From: an uncultured Actinomycetes bacterium
GTDB taxonomy: Bacteria; Actinomycetota; Thermoleophilia; RBG-16-64-13
Reading direction: 5' to 3'
Assembly (NCBI GenBank): GCA_963706025.1
Contig: CAVPLM010000003.1
Span: 384,001-448,000 of the forward strand
Length of the DNA stretch: 64,000 nt
Part shown: piece after piece, positions 27,789 to 49,906 of the stretch
Layout of the letters: each line of letters begins with the position of its first letter
How positions within the stretch are numbered: position 1 is the first letter of the stretch
Notes under the pieces: generated by a model
Database searches by the model: none
Seen by the model: only the letters and a program-made list of their open reading frames with translations
What the model was told of the DNA's origin: nothing
Position numbers and translations under genes: made by a program

Positions 27789-27799
27789 CTCGCCGGGTA

Positions 27800-28621: not shown

Positions 28622-28679
28622 GATCTCCCCCTGTCGTATCACTGAAGAAGCACGCGTTGCTTGACTCTAGGTTCACTAT

Positions 28680-28699: not shown

Positions 28700-28826
28700 C
28701 CAAGTCCGCTGCGGCGGATTTGCCTGGGCGTCGTGTTTAGCATTGTGTCAATCCATGGTACCGGTTTCGTGTACCTGTCTTCGTGTCCTCTGGTCTGCGT
28801 AGCTTCATCGGCGAAGTAGGGGATGG

Positions 28827-29561
28827 ATGGTGTTTGACGCGCATATGCACGTGGGGGACTTCGGGATATTCGGGGTATCCCTGGATCGGGACGGGCTGGC
28901 CGAACTCATGCGCGCCAACGAGGTCTCCGTTGGGGTCGTCTTCAGCCCGGACAACGAGGCGACCCTCGCGGCGGTCGAGTCGATACCTGGGGCGTACGGT
29001 CTCTACTGGGCTGATCCCAATCAGCGCGGACACCTGGACGAAGCCCGCCGATTTCTGGATCACGCCAAGTTCCTGGGAGTCAAGCTGCACCCTCTCCTGG
29101 ACGGCTACTACCCGAACGACCCGGTCGTCTACCCCCTCATGGAGTTGCTCGCGGAGCTTGACCTCCCCGTCCTCGTGCACACAGGACATCCCATCTTCAC
29201 TCTCCCCTGGAGTGTGGAGGAATTGGCCGTCGCTTTTCCAGGAGTGAACGTGATCATGGGCCACATGGGTCACGGCAACGGGATCTACATCAATGCGGCC
29301 ATCGACGCAGCCTGCAGGAACCCGAACGTGTACCTGGAGACCTCGGGGATGCCCATGCACACGAAGATACGAGAGGCTGTGGAGCGGGCCGGTGCGCACA
29401 AGGTCCTCTACGGTTCCGACGTACCTTTTCATCATCCGCAGGTGGAGATGCTCAAAGTAAGGCTGAGCGGGCTCCCGGCCGATTTGGTCGAGCGAGTCCT
29501 GGACGGCAATGCCCGTGCCCTGTTTTTCGGGGACGAGCATGCGCAAGTACCTTTGTCGTAA
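28827..29561 (+). CDS. Amidohydrolase_2-family metalloenzyme
   Basis: DAHMH, GVKLHP, VLVHTG, GHMG and YGSDVPF motifs. Confidence 0.88.
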   Translation: MVFDAHMHVGDFGIFGVSLDRDGLAELMRANEVSVGVVFSPDNEATLAAVESIPGAYGLYWADPNQRGHLDEARRFLDHAKFLGVKLHPLLDGYYPNDPVVYPLMELLAELDLPVLVHTGHPIFTLPWSVEELAVAFPGVNVIMGHMGHGNGIYINAAIDAACRNPNVYLETSGMPMHTKIREAVERAGAHKVLYGSDVPFHHPQVEMLKVRLSGLPADLVERVLDGNARALFFGDEHAQVPLS

Positions 29562-29654
29562 GGATGCCGAGGGGGAGGTGAGCCGGCACGAAGTAGGCAG
29601 TGGTTGGGAGACCACGAGTCCGTCGAGTGGTATCAGAGAACGGGAGGGATCGTA

Positions 29655-30803
29655 ATGAGTTCACGTTGGACCCGGGCACTAGTACTCATAATGGTCGTCG
29701 CACTGCTGGCGACCGCCGCCATGGTCGTGGCGGCATGCGGCGGGGAAGAAGAGACCACTACCACGAGCATGGCGCCGGAGACCACGACGACCATGGCGCC
29801 GGAGACTACGACGACCATGGCGCCGGAGACGACCACCACCGGTGCCCCGACTGCGATGGTCAAGAAGATCGGGGTCATTGTCCCGGAAAAAGCTAACGAC
29901 TACGGTTGGAACCAGCAGCATGCCGAAGCCGGCCAGAAGATGGCCGAGAAGATCGGTGCTGAATTTGCTCTCGCCGATGGCGCCGGATACGGCGACATAG
30001 CTCCCATCATGCGGCAACTGGTGCAGGACGGTTGCGACTGGATCATGGCTGGGGCCAGCGGCTACATGACCGTAGCAAAGCAGGTCGCCCAGGAGACGAA
30101 GACGGTCAAGGTCAATGCCATCTTTGCTCAGGAGAACACCCCCAACATCCTCCAGGACATACAGACCTATGCGGAACAGGGCGCCTATCTTGCCGGCCAA
30201 CTGGCTGCGAAAACGACCAAGACAGGAACCGTCGGTATCGTCGTCTCGGCTGACGACGAGAACTGGACCAAAATGAGCGCCGGCTTCATCCTGGCAGCGC
30301 AGGCCACCAAGCCCGATATCAAGATCAAGCTCGCGCAGGTGGGTCAGGCTGCCTACGCTGACGCCGCGGCCGCCAAGCGGACCACCGAGACCGTCATCGC
30401 CGAGGGAGCCGACGTCATCTTCGGGATGGGCGACGGTTCCAGCTTCGGTATGATCCAGGCTGTCGAGACGGCTACGCCGCCAAGCGGTGCCGATAAGGTC
30501 TGGTTCATCGACGTTATCGGGGACAAAACCTCGCTGGATACGAAAGGCATATACCTTACCTCCGTGGTGTGGGACTACCTACCAGCTTGGGAGGCAGCGT
30601 ACGCCGACATTCAGGCCGGAACCTTCGGCACCAAGACCATCTTCATCGAGCTCAAGAACAACGGCATCGGCATTATCAAGACCCAGTGGATTGCGGACGA
30701 CGTTTGGGCGGAGATCGAAGCCACGAAGCAGGCCATCATCGACGGTACCATCCAGGTGCCGGCTATCAGCGACATGAATGAAATAAAGGCCCTGATCCAG
30801 TAG
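29655..30803 (+). CDS. BMP-family ABC transporter substrate-binding lipoprotein
   Basis: Lipobox VAAC, Thr-rich repeats, DYGWNQ, EQGAYLAGQLAAKTTKTGTVG, GADVIF. Confidence 0.9.
   Translation: MSSRWTRALVLIMVVALLATAAMVVAACGGEEETTTTSMAPETTTTMAPETTTTMAPETTTTGAPTAMVKKIGVIVPEKANDYGWNQQHAEAGQKMAEKIGAEFALADGAGYGDIAPIMRQLVQDGCDWIMAGASGYMTVAKQVAQETKTVKVNAIFAQENTPNILQDIQTYAEQGAYLAGQLAAKTTKTGTVGIVVSADDENWTKMSAGFILAAQATKPDIKIKLAQVGQAAYADAAAAKRTTETVIAEGADVIFGMGDGSSFGMIQAVETATPPSGADKVWFIDVIGDKTSLDTKGIYLTSVVWDYLPAWEAAYADIQAGTFGTKTIFIELKNNGIGIIKTQWIADDVWAEIEATKQAIIDGTIQVPAISDMNEIKALIQ
29769..29840 (+). repeat. Three 24-bp tandem repeats encoding MAPETTTT
   Basis: atggcgccggagac... units start at 29769, 29793 and 29817. 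Confidence 0.95.
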
Positions 30804-30840
30804 CTCTGGTCAACACGACGGCCACTACAGCAAGGTGATC

Positions 30841-32484
30841 ATGGCAGACAACAGCACAGTCGAACATCCCGCGGATCTGGGCGGGAGCATGGGAGCGACG
30901 GCGGGGGCTTTGGCCCCCGCCGTCGAACTCACAGGCATAACCAAGGCATTTCCAGGAGTGGTGGCCAACAAGGACATCACGCTGTCCCTACACAAGGGCG
31001 AGGTCCATTGCCTGCTCGGCGAGAACGGGGCCGGCAAGTCGACCCTCATGAACATCCTTTCCGGGATGTATCAGCCTGACGAGGGAACCATCAAAGTCGG
31101 CGGCAAAACGGTCGTTGTCGACACGCCCAAGACCGCGATCGAGTTGGGCATCGGCATGGTCTACCAGCACTCCACGATGATCCCGGTATTCACCGTCCTC
31201 GAGAACCTCATGCTGGGGGCGACCGAGAAGGTCCGGCTGGATCGAAAAGCGGCTGAGACTGCCCTCACAGATCTGGCCGGCAAGCTGGGTGTGGAGATCC
31301 AACCCGGAGCGGTCACCGGCAAACTCGCCCTCGGCCAGCAGCAGCAGGTTGAGATCATAAAGGCCCTGTGGTCCGGCTCGAGCGTGCTCATCCTCGACGA
31401 GCCCACGTCGATGCTGACCCCGCAGGGTATCGCCGACCTCGAACGAGTCTTGATGCAACTCAAGCAGCACGGGCTTGCGATGGTGTTCATCACGCACAAG
31501 CTGCACGAGGCTATTGAGATTGGGGACCGTATCTCCGTCCTCAAACAGGGCCGCGTGGTCGGGCGCCTGGAGCCGGAGGATCTGCGCGGGAAGTCTCCGG
31601 ACGACCTGCAGGCAACCATCGTGGGCATGATGTTCGGCGAAGAAGCGCGCTCGCTGAGCGAGGTGGCAGAGGTGAAGCAGTTATCTCGCCTTCAGCGGGA
31701 GAAGCGTGATCTCCCCCCCACCGTTGTGATGGAACTGAACGACGTGAGCGTGAAGGCCGGCCGGGGAGAGGTCGACGTCCATGGAGTCAGCCTGCAGGTG
31801 CGCCAGGGAGAGATCATGGGCATCGCGGGGGTAGACGGCAACGGCCAACGCGAGCTGGCCGAGGCCATAGCGGGCCAGCGTAGGCTGAACCATGGGGATA
31901 TCGTGCTCACGGGTCATTCTGTTGGCAAGTCCTCGGTGGCTGAGCGGCAGAAGCTTGGCCTCCGTTTCGTTACGGACGACCGGTTGGGGGAAGGCATGGT
32001 GGGCTCACTGCCGGTATCACTCAACCTTTTCCTGAAGAGGATCGGAGAGCGTCCCTTCTGGAAGGGTGGCCGGATCCAGGATGACCTAATATGCCAGTCT
32101 GCCGAGGACCTCGTGCGCGATTTCGATATTCGCACACCTACTGTGGAGACGCACTGCGGAGCGCTGTCCGGCGGCAACATCCAGAAGATGGTGTTGGCAA
32201 GAGAGCTCTCCTTCGAACCCAAGGTGGTCGTCTACAACAAACCCACGTACGGACTTGACGTGAAGACCACCCGGGATATCCGGGAGAGGATACGCGAGCT
32301 TTCCGAGAAAGAGGACGTCTCCGCGGTGCTCATATCCACCGACCTCGAGGAGCTGCTCGATCTCTGCGATCGCATCGGCGTTATGTTTCGCGGACGTCTG
32401 ACGGGCGTTGTGGAGAATCACGGTCCCGGTGTCGAGACTCAGGTCGGCAAGTTGATGCTGGGCGGAAAGGGTGATTCCAGTTGA
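30841..32484 (+). CDS. ABC transporter ATPase, two-domain nucleoside/CUT2 type
   Basis: FPGVVAN, GENGAGKSTL, LILDEPT, AGVDGNGQ, LSGGNIQK. Confidence 0.93.
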   Translation: MADNSTVEHPADLGGSMGATAGALAPAVELTGITKAFPGVVANKDITLSLHKGEVHCLLGENGAGKSTLMNILSGMYQPDEGTIKVGGKTVVVDTPKTAIELGIGMVYQHSTMIPVFTVLENLMLGATEKVRLDRKAAETALTDLAGKLGVEIQPGAVTGKLALGQQQQVEIIKALWSGSSVLILDEPTSMLTPQGIADLERVLMQLKQHGLAMVFITHKLHEAIEIGDRISVLKQGRVVGRLEPEDLRGKSPDDLQATIVGMMFGEEARSLSEVAEVKQLSRLQREKRDLPPTVVMELNDVSVKAGRGEVDVHGVSLQVRQGEIMGIAGVDGNGQRELAEAIAGQRRLNHGDIVLTGHSVGKSSVAERQKLGLRFVTDDRLGEGMVGSLPVSLNLFLKRIGERPFWKGGRIQDDLICQSAEDLVRDFDIRTPTVETHCGALSGGNIQKMVLARELSFEPKVVVYNKPTYGLDVKTTRDIRERIRELSEKEDVSAVLISTDLEELLDLCDRIGVMFRGRLTGVVENHGPGVETQVGKLMLGGKGDSS

Positions 32485-33665
32485 GTGATCCTATCGGTCC
32501 TATCGAGAGTGGGCTCGCCGCCGGTCCAGCAGACGGGTCGGCAGAGACCATCGGGAGCGCCGACGTTAGAGTCAGGACCATGGCCCGCAGCAGCTGGAAA
32601 AGGGGCTCGGGTCAGGTCACTCGGGCCATCATCGCCATAGTCGTAGCTCTCATCGTCGGGGGGATCATCCTTCTGCTCTTGGGGCGCAACCCGCTCGCCT
32701 TCTACGCCGACATCTTCAGGGCCGGTGTTCTGAACGGCGGCTGGCAGGATTCGATCACCCGCATGTCCGTCCTTCTGCTGATGGGCATGGGCTACGTCGT
32801 CGCTTTCCGGGGAGGCATCTGGAACATCGGCGGTGACGGCCAGTTCCTGCTGTCCGCAGCTCTCATCGCTGGGGCAGGGCCCGCCTTGTTCGCGGTCATG
32901 CCGCAGGGCTGGGCGCTCATCATCCTGGGCCTGATCGGCATCGTGGTCGGGGGCTCTTGGACTATCGTGCCCTCCTACCTGCGGGCCTCGTACGGGCTGA
33001 ATGAGATCATCACCTCGGTGATGATGTCCTTTCTCGGGATCTATCTCGCGAACATCTTGATCAAGGGGCCGTTCCGCAGTGAGGAGACCACGGTCCCGCA
33101 GACCGACGTTATGCCTTTCGATAAGCTGCTTCCGAAGATCCCGGGGACGACGATCCCCGTCGGTATCTTCGTCGCTCTGGCAGCCGTTGTCGGCCTGCAT
33201 TACGTGATGACCCGCACCTCGATCGGTCTGAGGCTGACAGTGATGGGCGCGAACGCTCGTGCGGCACTACATGCCGGCCTGAAAGTCAGGCGGCTCATCA
33301 TGGCGGCGTTCTTCGCGTCGGGTGCGTTCATCGGGCTCGGGGCCGCTATGGAGATCCTCGGGGTCTGGGGGTATATGCGCGCCGACTGGAATCCCAAGTA
33401 CGGGCTGACGCTTTTCGCGTTGGTGTTCCTCGCCCGTTTGAACGCCTTGGCAGTCATCCCCCTAACAGGCCTGTTCGCGGTTCTGACCATCGGTGGTCAC
33501 ACGGCCTCCAGGAACGCCGACCTGCCCAATGACTTCATGCTTCTGCTCGTCGGCCTCATCCTGCTGTTCATGACCCTTTCCGAGCTCATCAGCATCGGCA
33601 AGGCCAGACGCCGCGTCCTTGGTCAGCGGATCGTGCAGGCGCTTAGGTTGGGGAGGGAGCCATGA
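32481..33665 (+). CDS. ABC transporter permease 1 (nucleoside type)
   Basis: WNIGGDGQF, NEIITSVM and GANARAA motifs; polytopic membrane protein. Confidence 0.9.
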   Translation: MSDPIGPIESGLAAGPADGSAETIGSADVRVRTMARSSWKRGSGQVTRAIIAIVVALIVGGIILLLLGRNPLAFYADIFRAGVLNGGWQDSITRMSVLLLMGMGYVVAFRGGIWNIGGDGQFLLSAALIAGAGPALFAVMPQGWALIILGLIGIVVGGSWTIVPSYLRASYGLNEIITSVMMSFLGIYLANILIKGPFRSEETTVPQTDVMPFDKLLPKIPGTTIPVGIFVALAAVVGLHYVMTRTSIGLRLTVMGANARAALHAGLKVRRLIMAAFFASGAFIGLGAAMEILGVWGYMRADWNPKYGLTLFALVFLARLNALAVIPLTGLFAVLTIGGHTASRNADLPNDFMLLLVGLILLFMTLSELISIGKARRRVLGQRIVQALRLGREP

Positions 33666-34588
33666 CCGTCGCTTTTTGGACGTCGCTTCTAAGCGGGATG
33701 GTCCTTGCCGGGATGCCGCTGCTTTTCACCAGCCTGGGCGAGACGATCTCGGAGCAATCCGGCATTCTCAATATCGGTCTCGAAGGCATGATGCTCGTAG
33801 GGGCGTACGCGGGATTTGTGGCCGCCTTGTACTCGCACTCTCCCTGGGTGGGTGTGATTGCAGGTATCGCAGCCGGAATGGTCATGTCGTCTATCATGGC
33901 CGTCTTCTGTGTGCGTTTGGGCTTGGATCAGATCGTGGTCGGTATCGCCATCTTACTTCTCGGCGAAGGTTTGACCAGCCTCCTTCATGGGGCCCAATTC
34001 GGTACTTCCTACCCTCGCCTTGAGGGGATGATGAGAATCGAGATCCCTCTTCTGTCGAAGATCCCGGTCATCGGCCCGAGCATCTTCAGCCAGCCCCTGA
34101 TCTTCTGGGTGGGAATCGCCCTGGTGATCGTCGTGCGCTGGGTGCTCAGGTCCACCAACTGGGGACTTAATATCCGCGCCGCGGGGGAAAAGCCCGGTGC
34201 GTTGGACGCTGCCGGGGTCAACGTCACCTGGACCCGGACGGCGGCCGTTCTTGCGACCGGTGGTTTCGCGGGCATCGGCGGTGCCTACATGGCCATCGTT
34301 GCGTCGGGGATCTTCGTGCCCTTCATGACCAACGGCCTTGGGTTCATCGCCATCGTGATCACCATGCTCGCGCGGGGCCGCGCCTTGTGGGCACTGGTTG
34401 GCTCGTTCCTGTTCGGCATCTGTCTGCAGATCGGGACCTCGCTGCAGGTGGCGGGGATCAATATCCCCACCGACGTCATCTTCATGCTGCCGTTCTTGGT
34501 GGTCATGATCGTCCTCATCATCTCCGCCCGCCAGGCTTATCTGCCGGCGGCTCTTTGTGTCCCCTACAAGCGCGGGCAACGAGGATGA
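33662..34588 (+). CDS. ABC transporter permease 2 (nucleoside type)
   Basis: LGETISEQSGILNIGLEGMML, IRAAGEKP, GFIAI, PAALCVPY. Confidence 0.92.
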   Translation: MTVAFWTSLLSGMVLAGMPLLFTSLGETISEQSGILNIGLEGMMLVGAYAGFVAALYSHSPWVGVIAGIAAGMVMSSIMAVFCVRLGLDQIVVGIAILLLGEGLTSLLHGAQFGTSYPRLEGMMRIEIPLLSKIPVIGPSIFSQPLIFWVGIALVIVVRWVLRSTNWGLNIRAAGEKPGALDAAGVNVTWTRTAAVLATGGFAGIGGAYMAIVASGIFVPFMTNGLGFIAIVITMLARGRALWALVGSFLFGICLQIGTSLQVAGINIPTDVIFMLPFLVVMIVLIISARQAYLPAALCVPYKRGQRG

Positions 34589-34645: not shown

Positions 34646-35821
34646 ATGCGCCCCGCTGATTTTACTGTGAGCGCAGGCCCCACCACGGTCTCGGCCGAGG
34701 TCATGGCGGCCATGGGTCAACCCATCATCTACCACTACGACCCCTCATTTCTGGAGACTTTCAAGAGAACCGTCGACAAGGCGGCCGAGGTCTTCGGGAC
34801 CAAAGAAGACGTGATACTGATGCAGGGAGAGGCGGTCGTTGGCCTCGAGGCCGCAGGCAGGGCTTGTGTCCGGCCGGGAATGAAGGTGGTCAACCTCGTT
34901 TCCGGGGTATTCGGCAAAGGCATGAGCGACTGGCTCAACATGTGGGGCGCGGACGTCATCGATATCACCGTGCCTTACAACGACGCCATAGCGCCCGAGG
35001 CCGTCGAGGAGGCTCTCAAGGAGCATCCCGACGTCGAGCTCGTGGCCATGGTGCACTCGGAGACGCCGTCGGGCACTCTCAATCCGGTGGCGGAGATCGG
35101 TCCGATGGTGCGGGCCCATGGGGCGGTCAGTATCGTAGACTGCGTCTCGTCGCTCGCCGGCATGCCGTTCCACCCGGATGAGTGGCAGTTGGACATCTGC
35201 GTCTCGGGGGCCCAGAAGTGCCTTTCCGGACCTCCCGGGATAACCCCGATGACTGTGAGCAAGCAGGCCTGGGCCCTCATCGACAAGAATCCGGCCGCGC
35301 CTCGCTGGTCTTTTGTGGCTCTGCTCGATTGGCGCGAGATCTATCTGAAGGGCGGTCGCTTCCCGTTTACCCCCTCGGTTTCCGACGTATTCGGACTGGA
35401 AGCCTGCCTCGACTGGGTGCTGGAGCAGGGCATCGACAATGCCATTGCCCAGCACACTATCGCCGCGGAGGCCTGCCGGGCGGGAGCGAAAGCCATGGGT
35501 CTCAAGCTGTGGGCCAGGAGCGAGGCCATTATGTCCACCTGCACCACGGCCATCACCGTTCCCGAGGGGTTGACCGACATCCAGGTGCGCAATCATGTGC
35601 GCGAGCGCTACGGGGTACAGATCTCAGCCGGCCAGAACGCCGGCAACCTGATCCGCATCGGCCACATGGGCGTCACCGCGCGGTCGCTGTACCCGGTCGT
35701 GGGGCTTTCCGCCGTCGGTCGCGGTCTCACTGACCTGGGGGCGAAGGTCGACGTGGGGGCTGGTGTCGAAGCTGCTCTCGAGATCATCAGCAGGGCTGCC
35801 GCACGAGGAGGTGCCAGTTGA
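34646..35821 (+). CDS. ppaT: Pyridoxamine-pyruvate aminotransferase (class V)
   Basis: Schiff-base Lys in GAQKCL; GEAVVGLEAA replaces the usual GSGTxAMEAA. YDP.F, SGVFGKG, VPYN.AI.P, NP.APR.S, FPFTPSVS and RIGHMG match, from memory, the M. loti enzyme. Confidence 0.85.
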   Translation: MRPADFTVSAGPTTVSAEVMAAMGQPIIYHYDPSFLETFKRTVDKAAEVFGTKEDVILMQGEAVVGLEAAGRACVRPGMKVVNLVSGVFGKGMSDWLNMWGADVIDITVPYNDAIAPEAVEEALKEHPDVELVAMVHSETPSGTLNPVAEIGPMVRAHGAVSIVDCVSSLAGMPFHPDEWQLDICVSGAQKCLSGPPGITPMTVSKQAWALIDKNPAAPRWSFVALLDWREIYLKGGRFPFTPSVSDVFGLEACLDWVLEQGIDNAIAQHTIAAEACRAGAKAMGLKLWARSEAIMSTCTTAITVPEGLTDIQVRNHVRERYGVQISAGQNAGNLIRIGHMGVTARSLYPVVGLSAVGRGLTDLGAKVDVGAGVEAALEIISRAAARGGAS

Positions 35822-36228
35822 GCCACGTGGAGTTCGACAAGGACAAGTGCACGGACTGTCGCATGTGCATGCAGATCTGTTCGATGAACAAGCTGGGGCG
35901 GGTTACGCCGGCAGCGGCGTGCATCCAGATCGATAGGGAGCGCTCCAAGTACTACGGCGACATGGGCTGCCGGGTCTGCGACATGACCCACGAGCGGGCC
36001 TGCGTGGATGCCTGTCCGGTGGAGGCGCTGATCTACGAGCCGGATCTGGACGTGGTCCGGTTCGACGCCGAGTTGTGCACGGAATGCCTGGCCTGTCTGG
36101 ACGTCTGCCCGAATGTGGCGAGAGATGTGAGGTCCGGCCGGATAATGATCTGCGACCTTTGCGACGGCGACCCCTTGTGTGTCAAGTGGTGCCCCGAAGG
36201 CGCGCTCTCATGGGGGGCAGAGGCATGA
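35818..36228 (+). CDS. 4Fe-4S dicluster protein, small subunit for AOR-1
   Basis: CTDCRMCMQIC, CRVC...CVDACP, CTECLACLDVCP, CDLC...CVKWCP; overlaps the AOR start (ATGA). Confidence 0.9.
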   Translation: MSHVEFDKDKCTDCRMCMQICSMNKLGRVTPAAACIQIDRERSKYYGDMGCRVCDMTHERACVDACPVEALIYEPDLDVVRFDAELCTECLACLDVCPNVARDVRSGRIMICDLCDGDPLCVKWCPEGALSWGAEA

Positions 36229-38030
36229 AATACGGCGGATACATGGGCAAGTTCCTCACCGTCGATCTTTCGACCGGTGCCACCGGCACTTGGGACACCC
36301 CGGACGAAATGGCGGAGAAGTACCTTGGCGGCCGCGGGTTCATCGCCAAGATGCTCTACGATCGGCTGGCGCCGAAGATCGATCCCTTGGGACCCGAGAA
36401 CGTGATCATCTTCGCCACCGGCCCGGCGACGGGGACTCTGGTGCCCACCACAGGGCGGATCGCCATCGGCGTGAAGAGCCCACTCACCAACACCATCTCG
36501 GCAAGCTACCTGGGCGGCCACTTCGCCGGTCAGGTGAAGTACGCGGGCTACGACGGGATCATCATCACGGGGGTCTCGCCGACGCCGGTGACCCTGGTGA
36601 TCGATGACGACAGAGTCAGTCTGCGCGATGCCTCGGGCATCTGGGGCAAAGACACCAAAGAGTCGCAGGACATCCTGCGGGCGGAGTTGGGCGAAGGCTT
36701 CGAGATCGGCGCCATCGGCCCGGCGGGAGAGAATCTGGTGCCCATCGCCACCTTCATGCACGTGCAGAGAGCAGCCGGTCGTGGTGGGTCCGGAGCGGTG
36801 TTCGGCTCCAAGAAACTGAAGGCCGTGGCGGTGCGCGGCACGGGCGGCATCAGCGTGGGGACGCCGGCGAACGAGTTCATCCAGGGTTGCAAGGAGATGC
36901 ACGACATCATCATGGCCAACCCGGTGCGGCCCGCCTTCCGGTATGCCGGCACGACGGGCATGCTCCCGGTAATGAACGAGGTCGTGGGGTTGCCCTACAT
37001 GAACCATCAGGACGACAAGGCTCCGGATGTGAGCTTCATCCACAACGAGGAGATCTACAAGTACGTCAACAAGATCGAATCATGCGCCGGCTGCAATGTG
37101 TTCTGCGGCGCGGTGGTGGAGTTCGAGCGAGGTGGGAAGCGCTATCGCACCGAGCGCTTGGATCACGAGTCGACCTGGGCTCTCGGTCCCAACTGCGGGA
37201 TCGTCGATCTCCCGGCTCTCATGGAAGCCAACATGCTCTGCGACTATCTGGGCCTCGACACCATGAGCGCGGGCGGCGCGATCTCCTGGGCCATGGAGAT
37301 GACGCAGCGGGGTCTGCTCAGCAAAGAGGAGACGGACGGCCTGGACTTCAGTTTTGGCAACGCCGACGTCTTGGCCCCCGCCATCCGGAGCATGGCCGCC
37401 CGGCAGGGATTCGGCGATCTCCTGGCCCGAGGCAGCCGGGAAGCGGCCCGACTCGTCGGCCGGGGTGAGGAATACGCCATGCAGGTGAAGGGGCTGGAGA
37501 TGTCGGCCTATGCGCCCCGGGGCTTCACCGGCATGGGCTTGAGCTTTGCCACCACCAGCCGAGGAGCCGATCACAACAAGGCCTTCACGGTGGCGGCCGA
37601 GTTTCTAGGGGTGCTCGGGAACTACGACCGTTACGCGCTGGAAGGCAAGCCTCATCTGGTCAAGACCATGCAGGACAGCACCTGCATCATCGACTCGCTC
37701 ATCATGTGTATGTTCACCGTGGACCTAGGGATCGGCATCGATCTGTATGCCAAGTGCGCGGCTCTGCCCACGGGAATGAGGTTCACCGAAGAGGACGTCT
37801 ACACGGTGGGTGAGCGCATCAATACGGTCGAGCGCCTGTTCAACATGAACGAGGGGTTCACTCGCGCTGACGACAATCTTCCGCCGCGTTTTGCCAGAGA
37901 AGCGGCGCCGTCCGATCCGGGGCACCACACCTTGGACGTGACGGCCGTTATGGACGAGTACTACGCGGAGCGCGAGTACGACAGCGAGGGTGTGCCCACT
38001 CCGGCTCTGCTGGAGAGATTGGGTATCTAG
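36225..38030 (+). CDS. Aldehyde:ferredoxin oxidoreductase family protein 1 (tungstopterin)
   Basis: GYMGKFLTVDL, YLGGRG, KSPLT, IGPAGENLV, AAGRGGSGAVFGSKKLKA, CAGCNVFC, CDYLGLDTMS, RGADH. Confidence 0.93.
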   Translation: MKYGGYMGKFLTVDLSTGATGTWDTPDEMAEKYLGGRGFIAKMLYDRLAPKIDPLGPENVIIFATGPATGTLVPTTGRIAIGVKSPLTNTISASYLGGHFAGQVKYAGYDGIIITGVSPTPVTLVIDDDRVSLRDASGIWGKDTKESQDILRAELGEGFEIGAIGPAGENLVPIATFMHVQRAAGRGGSGAVFGSKKLKAVAVRGTGGISVGTPANEFIQGCKEMHDIIMANPVRPAFRYAGTTGMLPVMNEVVGLPYMNHQDDKAPDVSFIHNEEIYKYVNKIESCAGCNVFCGAVVEFERGGKRYRTERLDHESTWALGPNCGIVDLPALMEANMLCDYLGLDTMSAGGAISWAMEMTQRGLLSKEETDGLDFSFGNADVLAPAIRSMAARQGFGDLLARGSREAARLVGRGEEYAMQVKGLEMSAYAPRGFTGMGLSFATTSRGADHNKAFTVAAEFLGVLGNYDRYALEGKPHLVKTMQDSTCIIDSLIMCMFTVDLGIGIDLYAKCAALPTGMRFTEEDVYTVGERINTVERLFNMNEGFTRADDNLPPRFAREAAPSDPGHHTLDVTAVMDEYYAEREYDSEGVPTPALLERLGI

Positions 38031-38362: not shown

Positions 38363-39154
38363 ATGATCAGACAGGCGCGCAACAAAGGTATTCCGCTGTA
38401 CTACCAGGTGATGCGGAGCCTGAAGGAGGACATCCTTTCGGGACGCTGCGCCCCCGAGAAGCAGCTTCCTTCAGAGGCTGAGCTCACGAAGATCTTCAAC
38501 GTGAGCCGTGTGGTGGTGCGGCAGGCGCTCGAGATGCTGGAAGATGAGGGTCTGATCGTGCGAGTCCGGGGCAAGGGGACCTTCGTATCCAAAGACGCGG
38601 CGGCGGATGAAGCCCCCGTGCTCTCCGGCTATATCGAGGATTTCCTGCGCGTAGGCTGGGCCCTTGAGGTGAAGGTACTGGAGTTCGGGCTCGTCAAGGC
38701 CAGTCCCGATCTGGCTTCGGTCTTCAAAGTGGCGGAGGCCAGCGATCTCTTCCACGTGAAACGGCTCCGCCTGGTCGAGAGCCGGCCGTTCTCGGTCGTC
38801 GAGAACTACCTACCCTACGAGTTGGGAAGGCATATTCCCATGGCGCTTCTGGAAGACGAGCCGCTCATGACCCTGATCGAGAAGCATGTGGGGGTCTCCA
38901 TCGAATGGGCGTCCCAGGTCTTTCAGGCGGTCTCGGCCGACGCCGATCTGGCCGCTCTTCTGGATGTCGACGTCATGGCTCCCATCTTGAAGATGACGCT
39001 CACCGCATACACCGCGGAGAGCGAAGCGGTGAATTTCGCCAACGTCTACTACCGGTCCGATCGTTACAACCATCACGGCTACCTGCGCCGGCGGCGAACA
39101 AGCGACCATCTGACGTGGACCGCGGTCGAACGCATCCACGCGATGGGGGCTTGA
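38363..39154 (+). CDS. GntR-family regulator (HutC/UTRA subfamily)
   Basis: PLYYQV, LPSEAEL, VSRVVVRQAL, RGKGTFV; UTRA-type C-terminal domain ending YYRSDRY. Confidence 0.93.
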   Translation: MIRQARNKGIPLYYQVMRSLKEDILSGRCAPEKQLPSEAELTKIFNVSRVVVRQALEMLEDEGLIVRVRGKGTFVSKDAAADEAPVLSGYIEDFLRVGWALEVKVLEFGLVKASPDLASVFKVAEASDLFHVKRLRLVESRPFSVVENYLPYELGRHIPMALLEDEPLMTLIEKHVGVSIEWASQVFQAVSADADLAALLDVDVMAPILKMTLTAYTAESEAVNFANVYYRSDRYNHHGYLRRRRTSDHLTWTAVERIHAMGA

Positions 39155-39182: not shown

Positions 39183-40220
39183 ATGCGGGCTTTACGTCTC
39201 ATGGCGGCGGGGGATCTCAGGGTGGACGACGTACCCGATCCCCAGATCAAGAACGGCAAGAACGCCGTCCTCGCGGTCACCAAGACCGCCATATGCGGAG
39301 CCGATCTCCTGCCCTATTGGGGCTATGTGCCGGGTTTCGAATGGGGCACCACAATGGGGCACGAGTTCGTCGGCGTGGTTAAGGAGGTGGGCGCGGCGGT
39401 CGCTCAGGTCAAGCCCGGTGACCGGGTCGTGTGCTCCTCGATGACCTCGTGCGGTGTGTGCTGGGCCTGCCGCCGTGGGATGCAGCCACAGTGCGAGAAC
39501 CGGGCTCTTTTCGGCTTTTCCGGGGCGTACCCGCGGTTGGACGGAGGCCAGGCCGAGCAGGTGCTGGTCCCCAACGCCGACCGCGACCTGTGGCTACTCC
39601 CGCCTGAAGTGTCCGATGATGCCGGGGTGTTCGTGGCCGACATTCTCTCCACCGCCTTTCGTGGGGTCGAGCAGGCCGACGTCAAGATGGGCGATACGGT
39701 AGCGGTGGTCGGATGCGGTCCTGTCGGTCTCATGGCCATCCTGAGCGCACGGCTCATCGCGGGAATGGTCATCGCCGTGGACACGGTCCCAGCGCGGCTC
39801 GAACAGGCTCAGGCCATGGGGGCGGTGACCATCGATGCCTCCACTCAGGATGCCGTGGCCGCTGTGATGGACCTCACCGGCGGACGCGGTGCCAAGGCGG
39901 TCATCGAGTGCGCAGGCGGAGTCCCTGCACTCACGTCCGCCATGCAGATGGTGCGGGTGCGGGGCACCGTGAGCGTTATCGGCGCTCACTTCGAGCCCGA
40001 TTTCCCCTTGGACGCGGGAGGCATGTTCGCCAAGGAAACCACCTTGAGGTTCTCGATCGGAGCTCCAACCGACGATCGCGAGACAGTGCTCGACCTGCTC
40101 CGGCTGGGCAGGATCGATCCCACGCCCACGATCTCCCATCACATGAGTCTGGAAGATGCGCCCGAGGCCTACAAGCTTTTCGAGGCTCGGGAGGCCACCA
40201 AAGTGGTGTTGACGCCCTAG
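39183..40220 (+). CDS. Zn-dependent medium-chain alcohol dehydrogenase
   Basis: CGAD, GHEFVG, structural Zn site CGVCWAC...C, DILST, GCGPVG. Confidence 0.93.
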   Translation: MRALRLMAAGDLRVDDVPDPQIKNGKNAVLAVTKTAICGADLLPYWGYVPGFEWGTTMGHEFVGVVKEVGAAVAQVKPGDRVVCSSMTSCGVCWACRRGMQPQCENRALFGFSGAYPRLDGGQAEQVLVPNADRDLWLLPPEVSDDAGVFVADILSTAFRGVEQADVKMGDTVAVVGCGPVGLMAILSARLIAGMVIAVDTVPARLEQAQAMGAVTIDASTQDAVAAVMDLTGGRGAKAVIECAGGVPALTSAMQMVRVRGTVSVIGAHFEPDFPLDAGGMFAKETTLRFSIGAPTDDRETVLDLLRLGRIDPTPTISHHMSLEDAPEAYKLFEAREATKVVLTP

Positions 40221-40312: not shown

Positions 40313-41461
40313 ATGGCGAACGCGCAGTTCTTTTTCTTGGGTACGAGGCTGGTTCACGGTCTTGGTGCGGTCGCGGGCCTCGCGGGGCACGTGAAGGCCC
40401 TGGGCGGTACCAAGGTCTTCTTGTGCACGGACAAGGGTCTCAGCAGCGCGGGGGTGACCGAGAAGGTCGCCGGCGTCTTGGCGGCGGATGAGATCCCGTT
40501 CGTGACTTTCGACGACGTGCCGGAGGATCCCGGGGTCGCGGTGGTGGATGCGGGGGTTAAGCTTTTCCAAGAGGAGAAATGTGACCTGGTCGTGGCTCTC
40601 GGCGGCGGTAGCCCGATGTGCGCGGGCAAAGGCATCGCCCTGGTGGCCATGAACGGAGGCAAGCTGACCGACTACGAAGGATTCAACAAGGCAGCCAAGG
40701 CTCCGTATCCCGTGATAGCGATCCCCACGACCGCCGGGTCGGGCACCGAGGTGTCGAAGGTCAACATCCTCACCGATGAGGCCCGCAACTTCAAGATGTC
40801 CTTCCTGGACGAACGGACCTTCCCGAAGATCGCTCTTCTGGACGGGGAATTGATGGCGTCGCTTCCGGCAAGACCGGCGATCGTGGCCGGCATGGACGCA
40901 CTGGCCCACGCTCTGGATGCCCTGTGGTCCGTCAACTCCACCCAGATATCGGACAGCCTGGGGGTCGCGTCCGCGGCCACCATCTTCGAGACTCTGCCCC
41001 GAGCGGCGTTCACCGGCGACCTGGCAGCCAAGCAGAAGATGCTGGAGGCCAGCTCGATTGCCAACATCGCGCTGGGGACGGCACTCCCCGGCTTGGCTCA
41101 CGTACTGTCGCAGCCCCTGGGCAGGTATCACATGGCTCACGGCCTGGCCACGGGCATCATGCTTCCCTACACCATGGAGTTCAACCTTCCCGTGGCCGCG
41201 GCCAAGATGGCGCCCATCGCCCGGCTGCTCGGCGAGAGCGGGAGCGACCGGGAGCTGGCTGAGGTGTTGCTCGAGCGGCTGTGGGGACTCATGGGCGAGT
41301 TGGACTTCCCCACCTTCCTCGACCCCGAAGTGGTGAAGGAAGAAGACCTGCCCGTCTTGGTAGAACAGTGCACCAAGGTCGTCAACTACCGCCTGAACGT
41401 GAGGTTTGCTTCTCCCGCCGACCTCACCGGCCTGTATCTGTGTGCACTCGGAAAGGAGTGA
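40313..41461 (+). CDS. Iron-containing alcohol dehydrogenase
   Basis: ALGGGS, IPTTAGSGTEVS, GMDALAHA and GLAH...AHG metal ligands. Confidence 0.93.
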   Translation: MANAQFFFLGTRLVHGLGAVAGLAGHVKALGGTKVFLCTDKGLSSAGVTEKVAGVLAADEIPFVTFDDVPEDPGVAVVDAGVKLFQEEKCDLVVALGGGSPMCAGKGIALVAMNGGKLTDYEGFNKAAKAPYPVIAIPTTAGSGTEVSKVNILTDEARNFKMSFLDERTFPKIALLDGELMASLPARPAIVAGMDALAHALDALWSVNSTQISDSLGVASAATIFETLPRAAFTGDLAAKQKMLEASSIANIALGTALPGLAHVLSQPLGRYHMAHGLATGIMLPYTMEFNLPVAAAKMAPIARLLGESGSDRELAEVLLERLWGLMGELDFPTFLDPEVVKEEDLPVLVEQCTKVVNYRLNVRFASPADLTGLYLCALGKE

Positions 41462-41463: not shown

Positions 41464-43345
41464 ATGGAGGCGACACCTCGTGGCTCCTGGTGGGGCAGGA
41501 GTCCTTTTCGTCGATGTTGGTACCGGCGAGACGCGGGAGGAAGCCCTGGACTGGGACGCGGCCCGCGATTTCATCGGCGGGCGCGGCCTCGGAGCCTACT
41601 ACCTCTTCAAGCATCTGGTGCCGGGCACCGACCCCTTGAGCCCGGACAACCCGCTGATCTTCGCGGGCAGCCCCATGTCGGGCACCTCCTGCCCCGGCTC
41701 GGCCCGGGGCGCGGTGGTGACCAAGTCGCCCCAGAGCGGGATCTACACGTTCGCGATCACCGGGGGCGAGCTGGGACCGGCCCTCAAGCGGTCGGGCTAC
41801 GACGTGATCATCCTCACCGGCAAAGCCGAGAAGCCGGTCTACGTGGAAGTGGGTCCGGACGGCGCAGAACTACGTGACGCTTCTCATCTCTGGGGCTTGG
41901 ACACACAGTCGACCCAGGAACTCATCAAGAAAGAGCGACGGGGTGAAGACCTGGCCATCACCTGCATAGGGCAGGGAGGCGAGCGGCTGGTGCCTTACGC
42001 CTGCCTGATCAACGAGCGTCGCGCTCTTGGCCGGGGCGGTCCGGGTGCTGTCATGGGCTCGAAGAACGTGAAGGCCCTTGTGATCAAGAAAGACGGACCC
42101 GCGGCGCCGCTCGCCGATCCGGCGGCGTTTCGCGAGGCTGCGCGAAACGCCACCTTCCAGTGCCGCGACAACCCCTTTACCTCGGGGCCACTGAAGACGT
42201 TCGGGACGGTGAGCACTGTGGCAGTCACCGTCAACGGGGCCATCATGCCGGCGGACAACTGGCAGCGCATGACCACTGTCGAGGAGGGCAAGAACCTTTT
42301 CGGCAACGTGCTCCGCGAGAAGTTCTTGGTCAAAGACGTGGCCAGCGGCGAACCCTGCAACATCAAGTGCTCGAAGATCACGGTGGTGAAGGACGGACCC
42401 TTTGCCGGCGCCTCGACGGAAGGACCGGAGTACGAGACCATCTATGCTTTCGGCACCGGCTGCGGCATCTTCGACTTCGCGCCCATCATCGAAGCCGACA
42501 GGATGTGTGACCTCTATGGCATCGACACCATGTCGGTGGGAGTGACCATCATGTTCGCCATGGAATGCTACGAGAAGGGTCTCATCACCAAGGAAGACAC
42601 CGGCGGCATCGACCTGCGTTTCGGCAATGCCGAGGCCATGGTGAAGCTGGTGCACGACGCTGCTTTCCGGCAAGGCTTCGGCGAGAAGATCGCCAGGGGC
42701 TGCCGCGCCCTGGCTGCCGAGATCGGGCAAGGCAGCGAAGCCTTCGCCATGCACACCAAGGGCGTGGAGGTCGGCGGGTACGACCCGCGGGGCGCCAAGG
42801 GCATGGCCCTGGTCTACGGTTGCGGCCCCCGGGGCGGCTGCCACCACGCCGGTGGCTACACCGTCCAGTTGGAGTTCACCAATCCCGATATCGACCGCTA
42901 TGCCGACTCGGGCAAAGTCCCCATCGTCCTCATGACCCGTAACCGCAGGGCCGCGGCAGCGGACTCGGGCGGTACCTGCGCGTTCCTCACGGTGGGCATG
43001 GACAACGACGTCCTCGCCGGCATGCTCTCGGCAGCCACCGGCAATCCGATGACGGTGCAGGACATGATGCTGGCGGGCGAGCGGATCAGCATGCTGGAGC
43101 GGGTGCTCAACGTGCGCGAAGGTCTGCGGGCTGCAGACGACGTTATTCCCCGGCGGCTGATCGAGGAGAGCGTCCCCGACGGACCGACCGCGGGACACAT
43201 GGTCGATTGGGATCTCATGCATAGGGAGTTCTATCAAGCCAGCGAACTGGACCCGATAACGTCGCTCCCCACCAAGGATAAGCTTGCGAAGATGAACCTG
43301 ACCTGGGTGCTCGACGATCCTGTGGTCGCGGCCCTGGCCGGCTAA
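41464..43345 (+). CDS. Aldehyde:ferredoxin oxidoreductase family protein 2 (start 41464 with one extra base at ~41500, or GTG 41480)
   Basis: FIGGRGLG, TKSPQSG, GRGGPGAVMGSKNVKA, EGPEYET, CDLYGIDTMS, YDPRG, RGGCH. The AAGGAG RBS precedes ATG 41464. Confidence 0.92.
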
Positions 43346-49885: not shown

Positions 49886-49906
49886 TCACGTGCAGTAGTC
49901 ACGTGC
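49881..49906 (+). repeat. 13-bp tandem duplication at the junction of the Mo subunit and yqeC
   Basis: AGTAGTCACGTGC twice; each copy contains TAG and GTG. Confidence 0.9.

Follow-up and report, generated by a model that had tools for sequence, protein, structure and literature searches.

Vitamin B6 breakdown is, to our knowledge, known only from aerobic bacteria, and ring opening in these organisms needs O2. In the aerobic degradation pathway I of M. loti, an amine is converted to an aldehyde and then to an acid, after which come a second oxidation, decarboxylation and attack on the ring. The amine step is the reaction of pyridoxamine-pyruvate aminotransferase (PPAT; EC 2.6.1.30; M. loti MAFF303099; PDB 2z9u-2z9x). 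Glu68 of this enzyme reportedly fills the phosphate pocket, a finding attributed to Yoshikane et al. 2008; we take Arg345 and, as the second one, Arg336 to be its carboxylate ligands, and Tyr95 and Thr146 are presumably also residues with functional roles in the M. loti enzyme. A second system to which the present locus can be compared is the nicotinate fermentation of Eubacterium barkeri, which uses a selenium-dependent nicotinate dehydrogenase, a ring reductase and hydrolytic ring opening. The roles of PPAT K197 (Schiff base) and D171 (ring N1), as well as the reversibility of the PPAT reaction, are given in section 7 of PMC9309667, and structure 2z9u is identified as M. loti PPAT in PMC6698932 and in the title of the corresponding Foldseek entry.

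The stretch of DNA analysed here, 64,000 nt in full and referred to below as the window, carries a gene that probably encodes an aminotransferase of the PPAT type, for which free pyridoxamine would be a substrate in place of bound PLP as a cofactor.

Results and discussion

An aminotransferase homologous to PPAT

The gene is a stop-free reading frame (34646-35821, + strand) for a PPAT-like class V aminotransferase of 391 aa (Pfam PF00266, 1.6e-23). The sequence GAAAGGAG sits 8 nt ahead of the ATG at 34646, and the N-termini in the homologue alignment, with the consensus MRxPDFT, agree with this start. A TTG at 34637 was ruled out as a start codon, as it lies inside the ribosome-binding site. 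The original prediction had placed the motif GEAVVGLEAA at the position of the phosphate-binding loop of class V enzymes, and this was confirmed by translation and by profile alignment to PDB sequences, the motif occurring once in the protein at residues 61-70 (34826-34855, +) with Glu62 encoded by GAG (34829-34831, +). Chance can be dismissed as an explanation of the motif, since the match to 2z9u, the closest full-length one in the PDB (E = 3.9e-108, with the runner-up at 5.8e-43), extends over the protein as a whole, from residue 6 to 382 of 391 against chain residues 11-389. In this alignment, 'lmqGEAvvgleaag' stands opposite 'ilhGEPvlgleaaa' of 2z9u without a gap; in the PLP enzymes 3isl and 3nnk, the residue opposite Glu62 is the Thr of 'dGTSragiea'. 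An AF2 model of the aminotransferase (pLDDT 93.5) gave 2z9u_A as the top Foldseek match (TM 0.94, rmsd 1.5 Å, 43% identity). The prediction had been made dependent on this Glu aligning with Glu68 of PPAT, and the correspondence holds in the 2z9u alignment, in the sampled clade rows and in the Foldseek superposition.

The window enzyme and PPAT have their fold and length in common and align end to end, with 42-47% identity to the alpha-proteobacterial PPAT clade (28 rows), and they share the Glu of GE(A/P)xxGLEAA, the Thr of (E/D)TPSG and the Arg of RIGHMG. Lys191 (codon AAG, 35216-35218, +), which is the counterpart of the Schiff-base Lys197 of PPAT and invariant in the homologue alignment, is conserved between the two along with Asp165, Thr140 and Arg337, while Tyr95 of PPAT is Phe89 in the window enzyme. 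QGEA, D165, K191 and R337 were present in all 34 sampled rows of the window clade, and the equivalent Glu, Asp, Lys and Arg in all 29 alpha-proteobacterial PPAT rows. The PPAT family of NCBIfam, NF046070, was the top NCBIfam match of the window enzyme (432.4 bits; second match 210 bits) and the best family for each of the ten Glu-bearing proteins scanned.

A branch of the class V family marked by Glu

A class V aminotransferase tree of 174 rows united the window clade, of 38 rows, with the PPAT clade, of 35 rows (support 99 for each), in an 85-row clade (support 95), itself nested in a 90-row branch (support 98). Glu characterises this entire branch of the class V family: it is present in 89 of the 90 rows, and 74 of the 84 rows on the other side of the tree have Ser, Thr or another residue at the same position. 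The branch also has ETPSG where others have ETSTG. In the window enzyme, which reads QGEAV and HSETPSG, the phosphate-loop Ser/Thr-Gly (GSGT, SSGT, GTS) and the ETSTG of PLP enzymes are absent, and other class V aminotransferases of the same genome, serving as an internal control, read SGTGS...HAETSTG. Of 8000 candidates that were scored, at least 3518 proteins reached E <= 1e-20, and a metagenome scan returned at least 591 relatives. This PPAT-like clade is large, consists mostly of metagenomic sequences and is left under a generic name by current NCBI rules, close homologues being named only 'alanine--glyoxylate aminotransferase family protein'.

Vitamin B6 genes around the aminotransferase

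A gene for 4-pyridoxolactonase (27800-28642, - strand) lies 6 kb upstream of the aminotransferase, its product scoring 380.1 bits against NF047925 (cut-off 325) and matching PDB 3aj3, '4-pyridoxolactonase', at 2.1e-95 over residues 9-275. The Glu had been ranked as the strongest substrate clue in the island, a ranking that has to be given up, since this lactonase equivalog is a clue of at least equal strength. The next gene encodes an amidohydrolase_2 protein of the ACMSD type (28827-29561, +; PF04909, 2e-31), a candidate decarboxylase or hydrolase whose homologues neighbour PPAT-like genes in 19 of 85 loci, among the matches listed. Two reading frames, 27569-28645 (+) and 28737-29615 (-), were rejected as genes; they are without a Pfam match, and the lactonase and amidohydrolase_2 genes are on the opposite strands.

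Between these genes and the aminotransferase lie those of a putative vitamin B6 ABC importer, comprising a BMP-family binding protein (29604-30803, +; PF02608, 6e-30), an ABC ATPase (30835-32484, +; Pfam ABC_tran) and two permeases (32481-33665 and 33662-34588, +; Pfam BPD_transp_2). The sole NCBIfam match of the binding protein was NF047927, 'putative B6 ABC transporter substrate-binding protein', at 356.1 bits against a cut-off of 400. Metagenome loci were used for synteny counts, since the phylum-wide search was too sparse (2 of 401 genomes). Among the matches listed, 56 loci extend more than 1 kb upstream, and in 48 of them a homologue of the second permease immediately precedes the PPAT-like gene; homologues of the lactonase, PLDH or FHMPC-DH occur in 10 of the 29 loci of at least 10 kb, again among the matches listed. 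One relative, at 52% identity, is encoded within a complete aerobic B6 cluster (locus L005), in which PLDH (379 bits, cut-off 325), the lactonase (420 bits, cut-off 325) and the B6 binding protein (417 bits, cut-off 400) all scored above their thresholds; an FHMPC-DH-like gene, a GMC oxidase, a flavin monooxygenase, a class II aldolase and an alpha/beta hydrolase were also present.

The lactonase, the B6-type importer and the relatives in aerobic B6 clusters point to a vitamin B6 substrate for the window enzyme, as judged from gene context. PPAT and the window enzyme are both linked to vitamin B6 catabolic genes, and the originally proposed PPAT-type reading is supported by the 2z9u match, the Glu-marked branch and the B6 gene context.

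Alternative readings of the aminotransferase

The same type of cofactor-free transaminase might work on other substrates, either with a different oxo-acid (glyoxylate, 2-oxoglutarate or 2-oxobutyrate) or on a B6-like aminomethyl-hydroxypyridine, which we regard as unlikely. The window clade forms a branch separate from the characterised PPAT enzyme, and Arg336 of PPAT (motif SGRGE) gives way to Gln or His, and a 2-residue deletion shortens the loop, in the nine window-clade rows listed; the window enzyme has Gln330 or a gap at this position and keeps R337 as the counterpart of Arg345. Given this replacement, the oxo-acid partner may differ from that of PPAT. Three PPAT-like paralogues at one locus (L004) likewise suggest substrate diversification within the family. 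The NF046070 score of the window enzyme is also below the equivalog cut-off of 600, but the L005 aminotransferase, inside a canonical B6 cluster, is below it as well (420.3 bits), so the cut-off appears to be limited to the alpha-proteobacterial clade. A further argument against this reading is that the neighbouring lactonase is specific for 4-pyridoxolactone. PLP chemistry requires a 3-hydroxy-4-aminomethylpyridine as electron sink, and a substrate that has to serve as its own sink would leave few alternatives.

A conventional, PLP-dependent class V aminotransferase of the alanine/serine-glyoxylate or beta-alanine/omega-amine type is distinctly less probable. In such an enzyme Glu would be tolerated beside the phosphate, and the aldehyde product, arising for example from an amine or amino acid imported by the transporter, would be oxidised by the adjacent aldehyde oxidoreductase. 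The intact class V fold with its Lys and Asp and the NCBI name of the close homologues agree with this; PreA-like, M20 and XDH-type genes such as those of the cluster are found in pyrimidine and purine catabolism too, and BMP-family transporters are chiefly nucleoside-linked according to the Pfam description. Against this, Glu occurred at the Glu62 position in none of the 75 non-Glu class V representatives, 54 of which have Ser, and the Glu branch shares ETPSG rather than ETSTG. PPAT is, moreover, the only characterised relative on the branch that we know of, the single NCBIfam match of the binding protein is to a B6 and not a nucleoside family, and a lactonase equivalog is nearby. The PreA-like and M20 genes might suggest reductive pyrimidine catabolism with a beta-alanine/omega-amine transaminase, but this was rejected in view of the lactonase, the B6-type binding protein and the enzyme's place on the Glu branch.

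A role in salvage or interconversion, supplying pyridoxamine or pyridoxal for cofactor use, would fit a reversible reaction (PMC9309667, section 7) and the linkage to an importer but is very improbable, since the surrounding genes encode oxidoreductases, decarboxylases, a lactonase and enzymes that attack the ring, its relatives lie inside complete catabolic clusters, and its presence in just 2 of 401 genomes of the phylum, the window genome included, is unlike that of a housekeeping salvage gene.

An aldehyde oxidoreductase module joined to the aminotransferase

The PPAT-type aminotransferase gene is followed by that of a polyferredoxin (35818-36228, +; 136 aa, 17 Cys; Pfam Fer4 families), the electron-transfer subunit of an aldehyde:ferredoxin oxidoreductase (AOR), and then by that of AOR1 (36225-38030, +; 601 aa; AFOR_N 1.6e-74, AFOR_C 2.1e-117), a tungsten-type enzyme by family assignment, as sequence does not tell W from Mo. 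The window proteins match the AOR of Aromatoleum aromaticum (8c0z) and the AOR (1aor) and WOR5 (6x1o) of Pyrococcus furiosus: the top PDB matches of the polyferredoxin are AOR-family Fe-S subunits (6x1o_B, 1e-14; 8c0z_C, 8e-14), and AOR1 matched 1aor (2e-125) and 8c0z_A (6.4e-125) over its full length. The order of a small Fe-S subunit gene and then a catalytic subunit gene is shared with the A. aromaticum-type AOR, whereas the window module is without the following FAD/NAD subunit gene and has a GntR regulator gene in its place.

The TGA of the aminotransferase (35819-35821) overlaps the TTG of the polyferredoxin gene (35818) by 4 nt, and the TGA of the latter (36226-36228) overlaps the ATG of AOR1 (36225) by another 4 nt. 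An overlap of the aminotransferase gene with an AOR module, as originally described, thus exists through the polyferredoxin subunit gene and not with the AOR gene itself. Overlaps of 4 nt recur in two further loci (L001, L019), and in four others (L002, L014, L015, L041) the polyferredoxin gene lies 2-120 nt downstream of the aminotransferase; the linkage of aminotransferase, polyferredoxin and AOR persists down to 62-66% identity. An NAD-type aldehyde dehydrogenase gene follows the aminotransferase in L003, and the FAD subunit of a Mo hydroxylase is the next gene in 25 of 61 loci, among the matches listed. The AOR module is predicted to be translationally coupled to the aminotransferase. AOR adjacency alone is weak evidence, because the genome, with 18 AFOR_C matches, has about 17 AOR genes.

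It is solely from the gene overlap and the conserved order that we infer a direct passing of pyridoxal to the tungsten enzyme, as the original prediction had it. With a lactonase present, a route via 4-pyridoxolactone probably exists as well, and at least part of the pyridoxal would be oxidised along it. The substrate of AOR1 may therefore be an aldehyde that arises later, 5-formyl-3-hydroxy-2-methylpyridine-4-carboxylate, instead of pyridoxal. We found no description of an aminotransferase-coupled AOR module, of an anaerobic B6 pathway or of a link between pyridoxal and AOR in the literature searched, most subscription journals lying outside that search.

The remainder of the cluster

The genes downstream of AOR1 are all on the + strand. 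A GntR/UTRA regulator (38363-39154; PF00392, PF07702), kept in L001, L002 and L019, is followed by a Zn-dependent ADH (39183-40220; Pfam), homologues of which, at 51-55% identity, occur in 12 of 85 PPAT-like loci among the matches listed, by an Fe-dependent ADH (40313-41461; Pfam) and by AOR2, a second AOR-family enzyme (41480-43345; AFOR_N, AFOR_C). A UbiD-family decarboxylase (43355-44950; Pfam UbiD; TIGR00148 255.7 bits, cut-off 244.85; best PDB matches 6h6x/6h6v) precedes a PreA-like protein combining DHO_dh and 4Fe-4S domains (44982-46208; PF01180, Fer4), a ring reductase candidate that scored 232 bits against NF006183, below the cut-off of 335. A xanthine-dehydrogenase-family molybdenum hydroxylase, assigned by Pfam, is encoded by FAD subunit (46234-47127) and Mo subunit (47258-49885) genes, the latter with 4-hydroxybenzoyl-CoA reductase as best PDB match (1rm6_A, 9.8e-142) and nicotinate dehydrogenase (3hrd) also matched. 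Cofactor maturation genes of a selenium-dependent Mo hydroxylase (YqeC plus MobA-like, XdhC and YqeB; 49903-53095; Pfam; TIGR03309 353.7 bits, cut-off 220) come next, and then an M29-peptidase-like protein and a cupin (53114-54550; Pfam). These last two are recurrent partners of PPAT-like genes, with homologues in 18 and 13 of 85 PPAT-like loci, respectively, among the matches listed. In soil metagenomes, a related putative 'lower pathway' based on a Mo hydroxylase, with M29-like, cupin, class II aldolase-like and XDH-type genes, seems to be widespread. At one metagenome locus (L046), the region past the XDH-FAD-like gene contains transposase remnants and unrelated genes. No Rfam family reached its gathering score in the whole 64,000-nt window, and promoter-like sites (1 against 2.6 expected) and terminator-like sites (9 against 6.8) were at chance level.

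A proposed route for vitamin B6 breakdown

Under the PPAT-type reading, pyridoxamine would be brought in by the adjacent BMP-type ABC transporter and would condense with a 2-oxo acid, probably pyruvate, in the class V active site. Lys191 would form a Schiff base with the product pyridoxal, Asp165 would hold the ring nitrogen, Arg337 would bind the carboxylate and Glu62 would take the place occupied by the 5'-phosphate in ordinary members of the family, after which pyridoxal and the amino acid would leave the enzyme. Pyridoxal would then be oxidised to 4-pyridoxate, either directly by the co-translated polyferredoxin and AOR1 or via 4-pyridoxolactone by a dehydrogenase and the neighbouring 4-pyridoxolactonase. 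As the transamination is freely reversible, it would be pulled forward by this oxidation, and vitamin B6 catabolism by the cluster would begin with the aminotransferase.

More tentatively, and with rather less confidence than we place in the reading of the enzyme itself, the aminotransferase could be the entry enzyme of a complete oxygen-independent B6 catabolism in Actinomycetota of anaerobic sediments. Deamination of pyridoxamine without PLP would be its first step. Ferredoxin-linked tungsten AORs would carry out both aldehyde oxidations, replacing NAD-dependent enzymes, and the resulting pyridine dicarboxylate would be decarboxylated by UbiD (prFMN), the amidohydrolase_2 enzyme or both. The selenium-dependent Mo hydroxylase, the PreA-like reductase and hydrolases would finally replace the O2-dependent ring-opening monooxygenase, a strategy that we propose, by analogy, to be that of anaerobic nicotinate fermentation.

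Compared with aerobic pathway I, as found in M. loti and at L005, the window has the importer binding-protein family, the PPAT-type transaminase and 4-pyridoxolactonase in common, and the proposed order of steps follows the same logic. Neither the SDR pyridoxal dehydrogenase nor FHMPC dehydrogenase had a match over the cut-off in the window genome. The neighbour set of PPAT in M. loti is aerobic, whereas the window enzyme has oxygen-independent neighbours: two AORs with a polyferredoxin, Zn- and Fe-dependent ADHs, UbiD, the amidohydrolase_2 protein, a selenium-type Mo hydroxylase and the PreA-like reductase. The likeness to E. barkeri lies in the selenium-type Mo hydroxylase, the YqeB/YqeC maturation genes and a ring-reductase candidate placed after the decarboxylase. 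The link is by analogy only, as the Mo subunit is closest in the PDB to 4-hydroxybenzoyl-CoA reductase and the reductase is of the PreA-like type; the comparison with the E. barkeri pathway brought out no homologue of its enamidase.

The host is probably a strict anaerobe. In the window genome, which is 92% complete, COX1 (haem-copper oxidase) was unmatched, as were the flavin monooxygenase and GMC oxidase of L005, and AFOR_C had 18 matches. At least a quarter of the sampled words was found in 13 of the 24 sequencing runs listed, eight of which are freshwater, sediment or freshwater sediment metagenomes, one a soil metagenome and four, from one study, unlabelled. Of four runs compared with the stretch, one was of DNA and three were labelled as RNA, and the RNA contigs were short, of low depth and in many cases from relatives.

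Conclusions

As an enzyme, the aminotransferase is a new example of a type already known, and it is the surrounding oxygen-independent B6 cluster that looks new. The Glu/ETPSG signature combined with a B6-type importer gives a simple rule for the re-annotation of PPAT-like genes, and if the reading is true, the rare cofactor-free class of transaminases with the 'PLP fold' grows to a large, mostly metagenomic clade. A definite physiological substrate, within a vitamin pathway of bacteria, would likewise be assigned to tungsten AORs. If the cluster works as proposed, it would show by what route anoxic sediments, and perhaps guts, mineralise B6 vitamers.

A probable PPAT-type aminotransferase

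The aminotransferase gene at 34646-35821 on the plus strand translates as an uninterrupted frame of 391 codons, and class V aminotransferase PF00266 (1.6e-23) is the sole Pfam family matched by its product. Because GAAAGGAG lies 8 nt upstream of the ATG at 34646 and an N-terminal MRxPDFT is common to the protein and its homologues in a 37-row alignment, this start, the one originally predicted, was preferred to an alternative TTG at 34637. In a HMMER comparison with the PDB, the closest solved relative was 2z9u (E 3.9e-108, 365 bits, query residues 6-382 against chain residues 11-389), followed by 3isl at 5.8e-43. Structure 2z9u is labelled 'aspartate aminotransferase' in the PDB file and is identified as Mesorhizobium loti pyridoxamine-pyruvate aminotransferase (PPAT) in PMC6698932 and also in the Foldseek entry title. 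The top NCBIfam model was NF046070, the PPAT equivalog, which scored 432.4 bits against 210.3 for the runner-up, BhcA, and so stayed below its cut-off of 600 bits; NF046070 was the best family for 10/10 Glu-bearing proteins scanned, with 0/10 reaching 600 bits. An AlphaFold2 model built from the 37-row alignment (mean pLDDT 93.5) had 2z9u_A at Foldseek rank 1, with a TM of 0.94, an rmsd of 1.5 Å, and 43% identity.

The decapeptide GEAVVGLEAA spans residues 61-70 and is encoded by nt 34826-34855, of which 34829-34831 form the codon of Glu62. HMMER paired 'lmqGEAvvgleaag' of the window protein with 'ilhGEPvlgleaaa' of 2z9u without gaps, placing Glu62 opposite chain index 67; that residue is Glu68 provided that Met1 of the 393-residue protein is missing from the 392 residues deposited. 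In the HMMER alignments to the PLP-dependent enzymes 3isl and 3nnk, Glu62 stands opposite the Thr of 'dGTSragiea'. Among 118 full-length representatives aligned from the 150 best 50%-identity clusters, those close to the query carry xE(A/P/G) and the remoter ones GSGT, SSGT, ASGT, and similar. Both the proposed pairing with PPAT Glu68 and the placement of this Glu at the phosphate loop of ordinary class V enzymes were thus borne out. In a FastTree phylogeny of 174 rows, the 38 rows of the window clade group with the 35 of the alpha-proteobacterial PPAT clade, which includes proteins named pyridoxamine--pyruvate transaminase by NCBI (support 99 for either clade). The two join in an 85-row clade (support 95) nested in a 90-row branch (support 98). 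Glu is present in 89/90 rows of this branch and absent from 74/84 rows beyond it, the remaining 10 Glu rows branching basally. The columns that tell the 99 Glu rows from the 75 others are 62 (E vs S in 54/75), 92 (G vs R), 141-142 (PS vs ST, that is, ETPSG vs ETSTG), and 225. As an internal control, the other class V genes of the same genome, G000 (33% identical), carry SGTGS and HAETSTG. Glu68 of PPAT is said, in 2008 work of Yoshikane and colleagues, to block the 5'-phosphate, a statement for which no repeat was found in the literature searched.

Residues K191, D165, T140, and R337 of the window protein correspond to K197, D171, T146, and R345 of PPAT and are invariant in the 37-row alignment; D165, K191, and R337 were found in 34/34 window-clade and 29/29 PPAT-clade sampled rows. 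Two differences accompany these similarities. Phe89 replaces Tyr95 of M. loti PPAT, and the PPAT motif SGRGE with Arg336, a second carboxylate ligand, is S(A/S)GQ(N/G)AG or GHG in the window clade, 2 residues shorter in the 9 rows printed; the Arg336 region is a gap in the HMMER alignment with 2z9u. PPAT itself functions without PLP, with pyridoxal attached to K197 and D171 touching N1, according to section 7 of PMC9309667. Given these active-site differences and an identity of 42-47% to 28 PPAT-clade rows (frameshifted row P0300 left out), the window protein is, on sequence grounds, placed in a sister subfamily of PPAT, outside the curated equivalog. The homology to 2z9u, the best-family match to NF046070, the structural superposition, and the Glu branch support the predicted PPAT-type reading, and a PPAT-type function with B6 as substrate is probable.

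Within its phylum, the gene occurs rarely, in 2/401 genomes at E <= 1e-90 with G000 counted, and in 0/3 other genomes of the same family at that threshold, while the clade is abundant in metagenomes (at least 591 relatives). Many clade members are named 'pyridoxamine--pyruvate transaminase' by JGI and 'alanine--glyoxylate aminotransferase family protein' by NCBI. Among the matches listed, close relatives carry the MAG labels Actinomycetes, Actinomycetota, Thermoleophilia, and Chloroflexota.

Genes flanking the aminotransferase

A 4-pyridoxolactonase is encoded at 27800-28642 on the minus strand (NF047925, 380.1 bits > 325; solved M. loti enzyme 3aj3, 2.1e-95), and a four-gene BMP-type ABC importer at 29604-34588 (+) has a binding protein whose sole NCBIfam match is NF047927, 'putative B6 ABC transporter substrate-binding protein', at 356 bits vs a cut-off of 400. 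Neither clue depends on the Glu, and each carries at least as much weight, so the Glu does not stand as the strongest substrate clue; as a marker for B6, the lactonase outranks the motif. Between them, at 28827-29561 (+), lies an amidohydrolase_2 (ACMSD-type) Pfam match, conserved across phyla beside the B6 importer or the PPAT-like gene in 19/85 related loci (the best 80 of at least 591 metagenome relatives included), with a counterpart at 3569-4996 of L004. Relative to the profile, the match begins at position 66 in the window protein and 61 in that of L004, giving an atypical N-terminus; the protein may be a non-oxidative decarboxylase of an ortho-hydroxy pyridine dicarboxylate. Immediately upstream of the B6 cluster, 24571-27788 carries menaquinone genes of the futalosine pathway (radical SAM, MqnA-like VitK2_biosynth, MqnC-like), a junction shared with L001 and L002.

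Downstream, all on the plus strand, follow a polyferredoxin (35818-36228), the aldehyde:ferredoxin oxidoreductase (AOR) gene AOR1 (36225-38030), a GntR/UTRA regulator (38363-39154), a Zn-ADH (39183-40220), an Fe-ADH (40313-41461), AOR2 (41480-43345), a UbiD-family decarboxylase (43355-44950), a PreA-like reductase (44982-46208), XDH-family FAD and Mo subunits (46234-49885), a YqeC+MobA-like fusion with XdhC and YqeB (49903-53095), and an M29-like protein with a cupin (53114-54550); an M20 peptidase lies at 54910-56457 (-). The closest solved relatives of the UbiD enzyme are 6h6x/6h6v, a furan-dicarboxylate decarboxylase. Since YqeB exceeds its cut-off (TIGR03309, 354 bits > 220), it points to a predicted selenium-dependent molybdenum hydroxylase; the fusion, XdhC, and YqeB are the maturation set of such enzymes and adjoin the XDH-family genes. 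About 120 N-terminal residues of the 875-aa Mo subunit (47258-47620) have no Pfam match, and the window cluster has no recognisable gene for a separate 2Fe-2S subunit of this enzyme. Reduced ferredoxin may have electron-bifurcating partners in two proteins encoded at 58776-62649, an HdrA-like polyferredoxin/FAD protein and one resembling MvhD/FlpD.

Coupling to polyferredoxin and AOR

The original prediction had the aminotransferase gene overlapping an AOR module. The overlap is with the polyferredoxin gene (TTGA); AOR1 itself is overlapped by the polyferredoxin stop (ATGA). Both 4-nt overlaps recur in L001 (90% identical) and L019 (66%), the latter retaining the full series polyferredoxin-AOR1-GntR-ZnADH-FeADH-AOR2-UbiD, and the polyferredoxin gene is 2 to 120 nt downstream in L002, L014, L015, and L041 (62-90% identical). 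Against the PDB, AOR1 reaches ~1e-125 with both P. furiosus AOR and its A. aromaticum counterpart, and the matches of the polyferredoxin, which has 17 Cys, are to Fe-S subunits, those of WOR5 and A. aromaticum AOR. In L003 (58% identical), an NAD-type aldehyde dehydrogenase gene comes next, the two genes overlapping at their ends; a Mo-hydroxylase FAD subunit is next in 25/61 loci with >1 kb downstream (best 80 of at least 591 metagenome relatives plus 5 genome loci). Of these arrangements, the two with an AOR or an aldehyde dehydrogenase as the next gene fit oxidation of an aldehyde product as the following step. Whether pyridoxal is the putative substrate of AOR1 is an even call. The 18 AFOR_C matches in G000 (~17 AOR-family genes in 3.66 Mb) count against this simple reading, and the lactonase would imply a route through 4-pyridoxolactone, so AOR1 could act on a later 5-formyl intermediate instead.

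Context in related loci

Genes of the window and of L005 were compared by tblastn with 80 metagenome loci, the best 80 of at least 591 relatives, and with L001-L005, which are 5 of 7 genome loci holding relatives; the other two, L006 and L007, share 28-29% identity and were set aside. These loci are not independent: L018 is almost a duplicate of the window, and identity is ~90% for L001, L002, and L014. Within this set, the importer's second permease is directly upstream on the same strand in 48/56 loci with >1 kb upstream, and homologues of the lactonase, SDR pyridoxal 4-dehydrogenase (PLDH), or 5-formyl-3-hydroxy-2-methylpyridine-4-carboxylate (FHMPC) dehydrogenase occur in 10/29 loci of at least 10 kb. 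L005 is a textbook aerobic B6 cluster around a PPAT-like gene, whose product is 52% identical to the window protein and scores 420 bits on NF046070, below the latter's 432.4. Its PLDH (379 > 325), lactonase (about 420 > 325), and B6 binding protein (417 > 400) exceed their cut-offs, its FHMPC-dehydrogenase-like gene does not (376 < 500), and it also holds a GMC oxidase, flavin monooxygenase, class II aldolase, alpha/beta hydrolase, and IclR regulator. In the Chloroflexota MAG locus L004 (10001-18520), three PPAT-like paralogues, which share 49-59% identity with the window protein, accompany a Zn-ADH, PLDH, lactonase, and FHMPC-dehydrogenase homologues and a HAD-family hydrolase that may be a PMP/PLP phosphatase. 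The importer upstream in L003 (10001-12654) is PotD-type, not BMP-type, with hydantoinase A/B genes close by.

M29-peptidase-like, cupin, class II aldolase-like, and XDH-type Mo subunit genes form a recurrent module beside PPAT-like genes in metagenome loci, seen at 53114-54550 of the window and in L028, L030, L031, L050, L053, L055, L058, L060, L061, L063, L066, L070, and L082. In L060, L063, and L082, it stands together with PLDH, lactonase, and FHMPC-dehydrogenase homologues, and the L005 flavin monooxygenase had no tblastn match in these three. This co-occurrence suggests that a molybdenum-hydroxylase lower pathway for B6 may be widespread.

A proposed oxygen-independent route

The G000 assembly comprises 30 contigs (92% complete, 7% contamination). 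COX1 had no match in it, the same search being positive in 9/14 named genomes as a control; with the AFOR_C matches, this indicates an unusually AOR-rich actinobacterial MAG that is probably a strict anaerobe. No SDR pyridoxal dehydrogenase or FHMPC dehydrogenase scored above cut-off in G000, and the L005 flavin monooxygenase and GMC oxidase had no match, an absence not established in an incomplete assembly.

We propose a six-step route, its later steps modelled on anaerobic nicotinate fermentation. Pyridoxamine would be converted to pyridoxal by the PPAT-like enzyme, and pyridoxal to 4-pyridoxate by AOR1 or by a dehydrogenase acting with the lactonase. An ADH would turn 4-pyridoxate into the 5-formyl acid, and an AOR would oxidise this to the dicarboxylate; UbiD and/or the amidohydrolase_2 protein would then yield 5-hydroxy-6-methylnicotinate, followed by hydroxylation by the Se-Mo enzyme, reduction of the ring by the PreA-like protein, and hydrolysis. 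No description of an oxygen-independent B6 pathway was found in the literature searched, which lay mostly outside subscription journals, and a complete pathway of this kind is put forward tentatively, at slightly worse than even chances. The window protein adds a member to the known PPAT kind, within a sister subfamily and with one notable active-site difference, at Arg336. The novelty lies in its setting, where transaminase, polyferredoxin, and AOR genes form a tightly coupled unit in a vitamin B6 cluster of anaerobe-type enzymes.
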